Shown here in pieces: positions 42,001 to 45,000 of a stretch of 64,000 nt of DNA. The position numbers were made by a program. The stretch spans positions 384,001-448,000 of the forward strand of contig CALSNU010000002.1 in NCBI GenBank assembly GCA_943787795.1. Reading direction: 5' to 3'. This DNA is from an uncultured bacterium (lineage in GTDB: Bacteria > Planctomycetota > UBA1135 > GCA-002686595). Positions within the stretch are counted from its first letter, which is position 1. Every line of letters begins with the position of its first letter.

Positions 42001-45000
42001 CGCCTCGGCTGATCGACCGAGCTTCGCCAGCACGTTGCCACGGTGGTAGGCGACGCGCGCGAGGCTCGGCATCAGGTCGCCCAGGGGGTCCGCGAGCTCG
42101 TACTCCTCGAGGTCCGAGAGCGCGCGCTCCAGCTCGAACTCGCCGCTCGACCGCGCCTTCGCGGCCTGGTACATCGCCTGGAAGGAGCGCTGGGTCCTGG
42201 GCTCCTCGACGAGCCGATCAAACTCGGCCGCCGCGCCGCGCCACTCGTCCTTCTTGGACAGCAATTCGCCAACGTTGTAGATCACGTCAGGGTCGTCCGG
42301 GCGGCCCTCCTGCAGCGCGCGGAACCCGGCGAGCGCCTCGTCGATGCGCTCATCGTCCCCGACCAGCAGCTGGACCTCCCAGAAGTCGCGGCGGAAGGCG
42401 TCGAACTCCCCGAGCTCCTCGATCAGCCCCCTGGCCTTCTTCTTGTTCCCGATGGGCCACGGTCCAAAGGCGTAGACGATGATCTGGCGCACGCGCGCGT
42501 CCACGTTGGAGGGGTCGAGGGCGACCGCTGCGGCCAGCTCCGACTGGTAGCGCTTCACATCGTCGAGGGCGCCCACCATGGCAGCCACGCCACCCGTCTC
42601 GGCCTCCTTCACGACCCTCGCCATGATCGTCTCCGCGAGGATGAAGTGCGCCTGACTGTTCCCCGGGAGGCGCTCCACTCCCGTCTCCGCGAGCTCGAAG
42701 GCGCGGTCGAGGTCGCCAGTCATCCGGTTCCCCTCGGCGAGCAGGACCGTGAGGAGCCCCTGCTCCTCGCCGATCGCCTGGGCCAGGGCAGCCTCCACAC
42801 GCACGATCACCGCCTCCATCGCCACGCGATCCACCATCTCGCGGAGCCCCTCGAGATCGGGGAGGGGACGGGCGTCATCGCTCAAGTCCAGCTCGATGGC
42901 GCGGGCGCCAGAGCCGCTCGCGCGCGCGGCCTCAATCTCCTCGGCGCTGAGGTCCGTCGAGTCCGCCCCGGCCTTCATCCAGACGGCGAAGCTGACGATC
43001 GAGAGGACGATGAGCCCCAGGAGGAAGGTGATGAAGCGAGCCATGGGCGGAGGATAGGCGACCGGCGCCGGGTTCAGACCGGCTAGTCGCGCTCCAATCC
43101 GGACTCTGACGGCGAGTCCCGCCAGGTGGGGACCTCCGGGCGCGGAATCCAATCGACCCCATAAAGGGAGGCGAAGGTCGGCGCGAGGCGGTCGTCGGTG
43201 AGGGAGAGGTGGAAGCCGACCGGGCTCGGGCCGAGGTCCTTGCCTCGACCGTTGAAGGTCGTCCGGCCCCAGCGGGTCCCGACGGCGACGAGCTCGAGAG
43301 CCTCGAACGAGCGGTCCTCGAGATCCAGAGTCGCCGTGCCGAGGAGCTCGCACTCGAGGCCGTGGGGGATCCTCCGCCGGGGGGTCCAGTTGTTGTCCCC
43401 CAGGAGCCAGGTGTCCGCCGATCTCGCCTTCGTGCTCCCGGAGAGCTCGACCGTCACCTTCGGGCCGTTCACCTCCACCACTCGACCAACGAGCCGCGCG
43501 CGCTCGATCTCCGCCGGGGCGTAGGGGAGGGTCTGCCCGCGAGCGTCGTCCACGAGGGCGTACCGCGCCAACCGGTCGGCCAGCGGCTGAAGGTCGATGC
43601 CCTCCGGTCCTGCAGGTCCAAAGAGGACATCCGCGAGGTCGGGCAGCATCGCCTTCACCTCCCCCTTCGAGTACCACACGGTGTCCCGGTTCCAGCGGTT
43701 CGAGGGGCTCGCGCTCAGCCCCTCGGGGGAGAGGTCGCGTGAGATCCTCGAGAGGGCCAGGCCGCCCTCGGGGAAGCCGTCCTCCCAGCGGTGAGCGGGG
43801 GCGCGATCCGCCTCGGGGTCCAGCCGCCGCTCGTCCTCGGTCAGGTCACCCCAGCGCTCCAGGGCCGCGTCAAGCATGGCGCCCACCCGCTCCGGCGAGC
43901 GGGAGTTGATGCGCCCGAGCACCTTGCCTCCAGGCGAGAAGACCCAGAAGCCCTGACGGGTCCCGCCGTCGGTGATGCGCTTGCCGCCGTTGCTCCAGCG
44001 CTGGAACAGGACGCAGTCGTCCTCGGATCCTCGCTGGAGGCGCCAGACCTCGTCCGCGGCGCAGGTGAAGCGGGCCGCCCGCTCGACGACCTCCTCGGTG
44101 AAGACAGACCTCCGGTCCGCCAGGCCATTGCCTCACGTGCACCCGAGCGGGTGCCCATTCATCAGCCAGAGCAGGAGCGGCCGCTCCTGCTCGCTCGCTC
44201 GCCGCACCCCGTCCATGAAGGTCGGCTCCCAGGCGATCTGAGCGAAGCGCAGGTCAGCCGCACCGGGCAGCAGGTGCGCGCGCCAATCCTCAAGGTCGAC
44301 GCGTCGCAGGAGGGGGCTGTCGACCTGAGATCCCGGGGGCGCCTCTGCAGGCAACGGCTGAGCCGGCGGCTCCTGCTGGAGCGCCGCCACGAGGAGGGAC
44401 GTGATGAGCATGGGGCGAGCCTACTCGCTCACCCGCCTTCCGTCGAAGGGGCGTTCGGCGCCAGCCCGCTCAGTCCATGTGCGCGACGACGCGCTCGTCG
44501 CCCATCTGGAGCTTGAGCGCCACGCGCTGCGCGACCTTGCCGAAGAGGTTCTCCCACGTGCGGATGAAGCCCTTGACGGAGACGCGGCGGATGAAGTCCA
44601 CCGTCGTCCAGTAGCGCGGGCCGCGCAGCCCCTGGGCCTTGGCGTAGAGCTTGGCCTGCTCGGACACCATCCACTCGCTGTGGAGCATGTACATGATCAG
44701 GTAGAGCCGGCTCAGCCAGATCTGACGGATCATCGGCTTGATGAAGCGCATCATCCACGGGTTGCGGATGACGATCGGGAACAGCTTGTGGAGGTTCTCG
44801 ATCTGCCGCTTGTTCTCGAACTCGATGGACGAGGTCCGGTTGAACTTCACGGGGAAGTCGTCGTAGGCGGCGACCGCGTAGCCCATGTCCTCGGTCATCT
44901 CCTCGATGTCGAACATGGGGTACGGCTGCATGATCGAGACCAGCGGGTGGTCGACCTTGCAGCGAATGTTCAGCTCCACCGTCTCCAGCTCGTCGTCGAG

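Follow-up and report, generated by a model that had tools for sequence, protein, structure and literature searches.

Two neighbouring open reading frames that carry only "hypothetical" labels are probably a single gene, encoding a predicted exported selenoprotein with a thioredoxin fold. Both lie on the minus strand of the window, the 64,000-nucleotide stretch of a planctomycete contig that we analysed. Under translation table 11, a 92-aa ORF (44133..44411, ending in ...GHPLGCT and a TGA) is followed in frame by a 279-aa ORF (43083..43922). When TGA was read as selenocysteine (U), the two merged into one ORF of 442 aa with a single recoded codon, U93, in the motif LWLMNGHPLG-C-T-U-GNG. The initial annotation had already joined the two pieces (g01466 and g01465) into one 442-aa frame across the TGA, and this was confirmed. 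A TAG four codons 5' of the ATG places the start at or after 44411. The TGA is present in contigs from the DNA runs of two other studies and is therefore not an assembly error: the site is covered by X5 record 10 (43192-44490) and X9 record 14 (43709-44255), and no difference is listed there. Contigs X15 and X16, from RNA libraries that may contain DNA, covered parts on either side of the TGA, with none bridging 44133-44135.

Table 1. Features of the selenoprotein gene, in positions of the window.
Feature	Position	Strand	Basis
Complete selenoprotein gene	43083..44411	-	ATG at 44411, 442 codons, TAG stop at 43085..43083; one recoded codon
In-frame TGA, predicted Sec93 in G-C-T-U-G-N-G	44133..44135	-	Column shared by 29/29 related and 80/80 further loci; contigs from two other studies' DNA runs agree
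Candidate SECIS hairpin	44103..44121	-	MFE structure; comparative pairing; fit to the bSECIS consensus as given in PMC13188914
N-terminal hydrophobic segment MLITSLLVAALQQ, presumed export signal	44373..44411	-	Suggested by the model and by homologue N-termini
Thioredoxin-fold domain, residues ~50-193, across the TGA (predicted)	43833..44264	-	Fold model and conservation
C-terminal beta-barrel domain, residues ~215-405, with conserved HLVDNVRGQ motif (predicted)	43197..43769	-	pLDDT 92.6; best Z 6.9

Several lines of evidence support a predicted insertion of Sec at residue 93 by SelB/SECIS decoding, and with it the earlier reading of a selenoprotein with a G-C-T-U-G motif. The genome encodes the Sec machinery, with profile scores above the curated cut-offs for selA (456.6 bits), selB (327.9), tRNA-Sec (69) and selD (327.2), and its selD has an in-frame TGA of its own. 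After six-frame re-alignment, all 29 related loci with coverage of the TGA had it at a single shared column, which was also kept in 80 of 80 further loci, over an identity span of 30-94%. Across the phylum sample of 201 genomes, 87 of 95 places had the TGA. An earlier count, in which 24 of 25 listed places kept an in-frame TGA, held up in a larger sample (33 of 34 listed places, with 29 of 61 genomes of the family matching at E<=1e-5), where the sole place lacking it again covered residues 206-314 only. In those rows listed with two TGAs that were re-read, the second TGA lay 5' of the gene or was its terminator. Cys replaces Sec at that column in seven full-length relatives: five are of the C-x-C form (P0162, P0220, P0197, P0199 and P0146) and two of the x-x-C form (P0078 and P0117). 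Against five distinct close relatives, dN/dS was 0.03-0.20 for codons 36-92, 0.05-0.23 for codons 94-163, which lie past the TGA but ahead of the first table-11 start, and 0.12-0.18 for codons 164-442. Purifying selection thus acts on both sides of the TGA.

These data bear directly on two other ways of reading the TGA. As an ordinary stop, it would give two products, a peptide of 92 aa and a distinct protein encoded downstream of it, or else mark a pseudogene. Public gene calls do split the gene, 137 of the best 150 library matches start only at the Sec column or beyond it, and relatives are named as "hypothetical protein" fragments at NCBI; the same observations bear out the claim that annotation pipelines miss the family. 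However, an ordinary stop is very improbable given the conservation of the column in both sets of loci, the low dN/dS in codons 94-163, which would then be untranslated, the modelled fold, which needs both halves, and the existence of full-length C-x-C homologues. Alternatively, the TGA might be read as a standard amino acid, by a reassigned code or by near-cognate read-through as Trp or Cys. This would likewise leave the frame open and has nothing specific in its favour. We give it hardly any weight, since TGA is also a normal terminator, ending the upstream radical SAM gene and 11 of the 29 homologue ORFs. Moreover, out-of-frame TGAs are common: with TGA read as U, other frames of the region extend to as many as 2320 codons, with at most 52 recoded TGAs. 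The genome also has a full Sec machinery whose selD itself contains a TGA.

A candidate SECIS hairpin starts 12 nt after the UGA, at a position suited to SelB-dependent recoding, which requires one there. It has an 8-bp stem (nt 15-22 paired with nt 26-33, taking the U of UGA as nt 1) and an apical GGA loop (44111..44113) that lies 19 nt 3' of the UGA; both the loop and the spacing match the bSECIS consensus as given in PMC13188914. The 60 nt 3' of the UGA had an MFE no better than that of shuffled sequence (z=-0.06). We therefore placed the case for the hairpin on comparative counts. Within the G-N-G subgroup, 86.7% of cells were paired, compared with 40-49% in slid controls; compensatory changes occurred at three hairpin pairs, and the covariation score was reached by only 1 of 500 shuffles. 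The N-N-G subgroup showed no significant covariation in the hairpin. We rejected the idea that all subgroups share one SECIS register, because hairpin position differs among the G-N-G subgroup, the N-N-G subgroup and the most distant ones.

The AlphaFold (AF2) model of the 442-aa protein reached a pLDDT of 91.1 and a pTM of 0.87. DSSP assigned a strand to residues 79-84 and a helix to residues 94-102, which makes U93 the last residue of the beta1-alpha1 loop, directly before helix alpha1. The attacking Cys or Sec of thioredoxin-fold oxidoreductases and glutathione peroxidases occupies the same site. Identification of the modelled beta-alpha-beta ... beta-beta-alpha core as a thioredoxin fold is supported by structural matches over residues ~50-193: 3f9u_B (Z 11.8, rmsd 3.0, 122 residues aligned), 1sen (Z 10.6), 2lst (Z 10.5), 3ph9_B (AGR3, Z 10.4), DsbH 2ju5 (Z 9.3) and 1vrs_D (Z 8.1). 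The initial annotation had proposed a thioredoxin-like N-terminus. The fold stood, by model and matches, but its limits did not: instead of being confined to the 92-aa piece, the modelled domain extends across the TGA and is built of strands and helices from both sides. Sequence models of the thioredoxin family gave no Pfam match at E<=10, no NCBIfam thioredoxin model and no PDB sequence profile match, where the search returned only a chance match (Nef, E=0.17).

The active site has the spacing C-T-U, with one residue between Cys and Sec, and is not of the C-x-x-C, U-x-x-C or C-x-x-U type. The block M84-N-G-H-P-L-G-C-T-U-x-N-G96, together with R100, E121 and Q153, is nearly invariant in Sec forms, and it is identical or nearly so in 29 of them at 32-81% overall identity to the window protein. 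In 13 full-length non-Sec forms the block is relaxed, with the structural residues retained. In one Sec form (L027) Thr replaces Cys91, so a resolving Cys is not strictly required.

As modelled, Sec stands where glutathione peroxidases have it, at the beginning of the first helix in a thioredoxin fold, which raises the question of a peroxidase. Here a peroxide would oxidise Sec93 to a selenenic acid, resolved by Cys91 or an external thiol as in glutathione peroxidases or peroxiredoxins, with no action on protein disulfides. Gln153, Asn85/95 and Trp82 are nearly invariant in Sec forms and are reminiscent of the Sec-Gln-Trp-Asn tetrad of glutathione peroxidases, and a haem peroxidase gene adjoins one locus (L035). 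Nevertheless, we regard a peroxidase as rather unlikely: the protein matched no glutathione peroxidase or peroxiredoxin HMM in Pfam or NCBIfam, its motif is H-P-L-G-C-T-U and not P-x3-T-x2-C, and none of the fold searches had a chain of either class in its 50 best rows.

The second domain was modelled confidently as a beta-barrel. Foldseek gave no match to it at E<=0.001, and VIA-align returned generic 8-stranded barrels only, none with Z>=8 (NspA Z 6.9, PagL 6.3, OmpW 6.1, Cap15 5.3). The large C-terminal domain of unknown fold that had been proposed is therefore a predicted beta-barrel with weak, generic matches and no clear solved relative. We rejected an outer-membrane barrel because of the charged strands and the packing on the thioredoxin domain (pTM 0.87).

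At the N-terminus, the model has a helix at residues 2-11 and then a low-confidence linker to residue ~35. The N-terminus was hydrophobic in 22 of 28 homologues, and four had a lipobox-like motif; the signal of the window protein is without a positive N-region. From these N-termini we infer, in agreement with the earlier view of a secreted protein, that the product is exported and may be periplasmic or lipid-anchored. The kinase-fused relatives described below, whose module comes after a hydrophobic stretch, also favour export.

The gene neighbourhood told us little about function. The adjoining B12-radical SAM gene that had been pointed out is real (44470..46086, minus strand), and its copy in the same genus matches PF04055 and PF02310. 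A partnership with it was rejected: when 29 related loci were searched with tblastn, the B12-radical SAM, TPR and BadF-type neighbours were found in L007 only, a locus from the same genus as the window. A Pfam scan of 50 flanking ORFs found no recurrent neighbour, with CarboxypepD_reg at four loci and DNA_alkylation, SSF and Pkinase at two each. With no conserved neighbourhood, operon-based inference was dropped, and the radical SAM gene is uninformative on function.

Neighbours and fusions also bear on a non-catalytic role, in which Cys91 and Sec93, perhaps with His87, would bind a metal or metalloid (Cu, Hg, As or Se), or the protein would act as a redox or ligand sensor of the envelope. The H-x3-C-x-U spacing is nearly invariant in Sec forms, and thioredoxin-fold Cu chaperones (Sco) provide a precedent. 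Some non-Sec relatives are fused to Ser/Thr kinases (P0220 and P0087), with the module as their C-terminal part, beyond the kinase domain and a stretch that reads as hydrophobic in the sequence. In addition, 3 of the 29 related loci (L018, L029 and L019) are flanked by kinase or ECF sigma genes. Such a role is nonetheless improbable in our judgement, as His87 is absent from 5 of 13 non-Sec forms, including four of the five C-x-C forms, no metal-resistance or transport genes lie in a conserved neighbourhood at the 29 related loci, and the kinase-fused forms are without Sec, one of them without any Cys at the site.

We return to catalysis, and think it likely that one gene gives rise to an exported two-domain selenoenzyme with a C-x-U redox centre on a thioredoxin fold. 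SelB and Sec-tRNA would read the UGA, assisted by the hairpin, and the protein would be exported via its N-terminal signal. The Sec93 selenolate would be the nucleophile; Cys91, two residues upstream, could resolve the adduct as an intramolecular selenenylsulfide, so that the centre would alternate between the selenol/thiol and Se-S states, as proposed for the C-x-U centre of SELENOF. The near-invariant N85, H87, T92, N95, R100 and Q153 may tune the centre, and the beta-barrel domain may bind a substrate or partner. In the cell envelope, the most likely activity would be thiol/disulfide exchange, or else a reduction whose substrate is oxidised sulfur or a peroxide.

The family is large. Of the 201 Planctomycetota genomes sampled, 59 carried it, with up to seven copies per genome, and it comprises 3227 representatives (sequence clusters) at E<=0.001. 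When the plain downstream ORF was used in a protein cluster search, it matched unnamed Planctomycetota clusters only. As the initial annotation had stated, the protein belongs to no Pfam or NCBIfam family: Pfam gave no match at E<=10 and NCBIfam a single spurious one (ExtJ, E=0.24). PF26520, listed for the relative P0021, was not reproduced by hmmscan. No row of Table 1 of PMC13188914 (119 selenoprotein families, 2026) carries a model that scores on this protein. We found no description of the family in the available parts of PMC13188914, PMC2398784, PMC12013277 and PMC4807772 or in a full-text literature search. The claim of an undescribed family is thus supported, though supplementary candidate lists may hold it. 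Table S9 of PMC4807772 includes a split planctomycete candidate, labelled "hypothetical" and identified solely by its IMG number, that could be this C-x-U family. According to PMC13188914, Deng et al. 2026 (Cell Rep 45:116760) has novel candidates from groundwater MAGs.

Pipelines break these genes at the Sec codon, and as a result a family of thousands of clusters goes unrecognised as a selenoprotein. Its recognition adds a family to the bacterial selenoproteome and raises the inferred selenium demand of marine Planctomycetota, and an HMM built from the family alignment A1 would make correct annotation by pipelines possible. Cys forms are nearly absent among close relatives. Together with the near-invariant active-site block, this suggests a chemistry in which selenium may be hard to replace. 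We offer a broader reading only tentatively: that this is an undescribed selenoenzyme family, largely of Planctomycetota and among the commonest of their envelope selenoproteins, that its C-x-U centre and a ligand-binding barrel of no known fold family carry out an envelope redox reaction so far assigned to no selenoprotein, and that its Sec-free descendants have become sensor domains of Ser/Thr kinases. If this were true, the barrel might, for example, hold an oxidised small molecule or lipid that is reduced there.

Among known systems, bacterial C-x-U selenoproteins appear in Table 1 of PMC13188914, where Sec.1 is also thioredoxin-like. They differ from the window protein, which has 442 aa and two domains and gives no match to PF13192 at E<=10; nor does it match any NCBIfam model that the table names for its other families. 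The best structural matches, DsbD-gamma/Thioredoxin_7/DsbH, ERp19 (TXNDC12) and AGR2/AGR3, are exported or luminal thiol-disulfide proteins. Unlike the window protein, they have C-x-x-C or C-x-x-S, lack Sec and a beta-barrel, and show no HMM-level similarity to it. SELENOF (Sep15), an ER-resident selenoprotein of eukaryotes, is described in PMC9304195 as thioredoxin-like with a C-x-U centre. The two share a thioredoxin-like fold, predicted here, the C-x-U motif and a non-cytosolic location, the ER lumen for SELENOF and the predicted cell envelope here. They differ in that the SECIS of SELENOF lies in the 3'-UTR, whereas the candidate here is bacterial and within the coding region; there was no Pfam match and no sequence relationship detected, and the 50 best rows of each fold search included no SELENOF or SELENOM chain. 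SELENOF pairs its thioredoxin-like domain with a Cys-rich domain that binds UGGT, whereas the predicted partner here is a beta-barrel. The C-x-U centre of SELENOF is poorly understood, and the family would provide a counterpart from bacteria that can be expressed and assayed.

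Read through the TGA, the 92-aa and 279-aa ORFs called under translation table 11 form a single frame joined by one recoded codon, U93, which bears out the initial annotation's proposal of one 442-aa protein. The in-frame TGA lies at 44135..44133, and a TAG four codons 5' of the ATG at 44411 rules out a longer N-terminus. DNA contigs of two other studies span the site (X5 record 10, 43192-44490; X9 record 14, 43709-44255) and list no difference there, so the TGA is not an assembly error. If the TGA were a stop followed by a restart at the GTG of the 279-aa ORF, codons 94-163 would be an untranslated stretch. 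Measured against five distinct close relatives (the homologue locus L039 duplicates L007), dN/dS was 0.03-0.20 for codons 36-92 on the 5' side, 0.05-0.23 for codons 94-163 and 0.12-0.18 for codons 164-442 in the downstream ORF. Judged by these substitution rates, the gene is coding both before and after the TGA. In each of the six comparisons (five distinct), dS of codons 94-163 (43921..44132) was 0.23-0.34, below the 0.30-0.73 of codons 164-442; this reduction right after the TGA would fit constraint from an overlapping RNA structure. Two RNA libraries yielded contigs that partly cover the gene before and after the TGA; none bridges it, and DNA carry-over is possible.

Features of the selenoprotein locus, its flanking genes and the selD locus of the same genome
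Feature	Coordinates	Strand	Remarks
92-aa ORF	44133..44411	-	table 11; ends ...LWLMNGHPLGCT then TGA
279-aa ORF	43083..43922	-	table 11; same frame as 92-aa ORF; start GTG
Joined 442-codon ORF	43083..44411	-	TGA read as U; one recoded codon (U93)
Candidate SECIS, 8-bp hairpin, loop GGA	44103..44121	-	nt 15-33 from UGA; minimum-energy fold of 60 nt
B12-binding radical SAM protein, 538 aa	44470..46086	-	upstream; Pfam support via L007 copy
Glycosyltransferase-like ORF, 387 aa	46300..47463	-	upstream; name from sequence reading
TPR protein with N-terminal membrane helix	about 41914..43050		downstream; Pfam support via L007 copy
BadF/BcrA-type ATPase-like ORF	40929..41921		downstream; name from sequence reading
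selD (L116)	G000:C5:186257-187201		own genome; adjoins selA at C5:184589-185899; one in-frame TGA

The genome holds selA (456.6 bits), selB (327.9 bits), selD (327.2 bits) and a tRNA-Sec (69 bits; gathering score 47). Since selD carries an in-frame TGA of its own, the selenophosphate synthetase is probably likewise a selenoprotein. The upstream radical SAM gene terminates in ...ATG GAC TGA, and TGA is the terminator in 11 of 29 homologue ORFs; TGA is not reassigned.

Within the same family, 29 of 61 genomes gave matches at E<=1e-5, and the earlier count of homologues keeping the TGA was upheld in this larger sample: 33 of 34 listed places have an in-frame TGA, the sole exception spanning residues 206-314 only. 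After six-frame translation and alignment of 30 loci, the TGA fell in the same column in all 29 that cover the site, within M-N-G-H-P-L-G-C-T-U-[G/N]-N-G; extra TGAs in the re-read rows were either 5' of the gene or its terminator. Across the phylum, a profile search (E<=1e-10) found the family in 59 of 201 sampled genomes, with a TGA at 87 of 95 listed places; three of the eight without it span the Sec column. A pattern scan over single genomes from each species returned 482 related stretches; TGA stood at the Sec column in all 80 kept, almost all from Planctomycetota MAGs, a sample biased by its selection through the motif just 5' of that column. Some Planctomycetota genomes carry many paralogues (seven places in G174, six in G126), and one tandem pair (G166:C42:50043-51107 and 51169-52308) has a TGA in each copy. 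Homologues L100, L103, L110, L111 and L114 come from MAGs labelled Acidobacteriota, Neomarinimicrobiota/Marinimicrobia or Luminiphilus, which could be mis-binning or gene transfer.

For the candidate hairpin, the 60 nt from the UGA folded no better than shuffles (z=-0.06). When homologues were sorted by the residues after U, the 16 sequences of the G-N-G subgroup had 86.7% of cells paired against 40-49% with the 3' arm slid, both-side changes at three pairs (GC/CG, CG/UA, CG/AU), and a covariation score equalled by 1 of 500 shuffles. The seven N-N-G sequences place a hairpin 3 nt further (loop GGUCG, 84% paired), near-invariant and hence uninformative, and the most distant subgroup has still other hairpins. 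In these alignments, comparative support for the hairpin is better than thermodynamic support. The window hairpin, 19 nt from the UGA, has a stem of 8 bp and a 3-nt loop bearing G at positions 1-2, and agrees in loop, stem and spacing with the bacterial SECIS consensus as worded in section 5 of PMC13188914.

The window protein has no Pfam match at E<=10 and a single chance match in NCBIfam, consistent with the absence of a known family in the initial annotation, and a PDB sequence profile search gave no real match. We built an AlphaFold2 model with a 29-row alignment (pLDDT 91.1, pTM 0.87), in which residues ~50-193 adopt a thioredoxin fold. The best structural matches were 3f9u_B, an exported cytochrome-c-biogenesis-related domain (Z 11.8, rmsd 3.0, 122 aligned), 1sen, ERp19 (Z 10.6, 23% identity), 2lst, thioredoxin (Z 10.5), 3ph9_B, AGR3 (Z 10.4), 2ju5, DsbH (Z 9.3) and 1vrs_D, DsbD-gamma (Z 8.1); Foldseek pointed to these families too, at a probability of ~1 and with E>0.001. 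The thioredoxin-like module suspected at the N-terminus is thus present in the model, but it exceeds the 92-aa piece, being built from sequence on both sides of the TGA. The loop N-G-H-P-L-G-C-T-U connects a strand (79-84) to a helix (94-102) that begins directly after U93. In thioredoxin-fold enzymes, this helix-start position is the site of the attacking residue.

Among the 29 Sec forms, whose identity to the window protein is 32-81%, M84, N85, G86, H87, P88, G90, U93, N95, G96, R100, E121 and Q153 are invariant where covered; C91 and T92 deviate in one row each. A profile of these forms, searched against 1.84 billion representatives, matched 3227 proteins at E<=0.001, 547 of them at E<=1e-30. 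Among 150 listed, 137 start at profile position 92 or later, i.e. at or after the Sec column, and 13 are full-length, all without Sec. Five of the 13 have C-x-C at the same columns (G-C-T-C in P0162 and P0220, C-N-C in P0197 and P0146, C-D-C in P0199), two have x-x-C (P0078, P0117), and in six the Sec column holds Ser, Ala, Arg or Asp. Active-site positions drift in these 13 (N85 kept in four, Q153 in six), the structural residues W61, P78, R225 and W246 are invariant in all of them, and W82, D288 and G292 are unchanged in nearly all rows. As read from the alignment, this pattern is that of an enzyme relying on the Sec site for its chemistry. Full-length P0101 retains the complete Sec-type block (MNGHPMACT-A-GNG, with Q153) and has Ala at the Sec position, which may be a natural loss or a source-record error. 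Two non-Sec relatives, P0220 (840 aa) and P0087 (1541 aa, with Kelch repeats), are fused to Ser/Thr kinases and carry the module of this family at their C-terminal end. Other Sec-free or fragmentary relatives (P0146, 738 aa; P0122; P0190) are fused to a SecDF P1-head-like segment, a PQQ beta-propeller or an endonuclease/exonuclease/phosphatase domain.

The C-terminal domain, previously described as of unknown fold, has no close solved match, but it was modelled confidently as a beta-barrel. Modelled alone with 72 sequences (pLDDT 92.6), residues ~215-405 are arranged as long antiparallel strands in a barrel, with only generic matches (NspA, Z 6.9; PagL, 6.3; Cap15, 5.3); no structure reached Z>=8, and Foldseek gave none at E<=0.001. 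In the model, a short hydrophobic helix at the N-terminus leads into a low-confidence linker. A hydrophobic 9-mer occurs in the first 40 residues of 22 of the 28 homologues with an N-terminus, and a lipobox-like motif in four. The window protein is predicted to be exported.

The B12-radical SAM neighbour named in the initial annotation lies 58 bp upstream and has a counterpart only in the same-genus genome, and the 50 flanking ORFs in 28 loci contain no recurrent partner gene. The selenoprotein gene stands alone, so its context gives no function. Directly 5' of the L019 homologue, a 113-aa ORF (L019:2290-2628, minus strand) is similar to Pfam T4_deiodinase over the C-terminal part of the model alone (positions 166-229 of 237, E=3e-6) and is possibly another selenoprotein cut at a TGA.

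Thioredoxin-fold selenoproteins are already known. Table 1 of a 2026 review (119 prokaryotic selenoprotein families, PMC13188914) has no row whose domain model scores on the window protein, which, with no Pfam match, supports the claim of an undescribed family; Planctomycetes are never mentioned in that review. The available parts of the GOS and deep-Sep papers describe nothing resembling it, and those of a 2016 planctomycete genome paper (PMC4807772) give one split 'hypothetical' candidate, identified solely by an IMG number, which could be a member of this family. As far as domain models and these literature passages go, neither the family nor its pairing of a C-x-U centre with a barrel, nor its spread across Planctomycetota, has been described.

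In the mechanism we propose, the UGA would be decoded by SelB and Sec-tRNA with the hairpin, and the protein would then be exported. The Sec93 selenolate would attack an oxidised substrate (disulfide, sulfenic acid or peroxide), Cys91 would resolve the adduct as a selenenylsulfide, and a reductant would regenerate the centre, with substrate or partner binding supplied by the barrel. A role as a peroxidase, or as a metal-binding or sensor protein, is a less probable alternative. Although it has no detectable relationship to the window protein, SELENOF, which is thioredoxin-like, resides in the ER and has a C-x-U centre (PMC9304195), is the nearest functional analogue.
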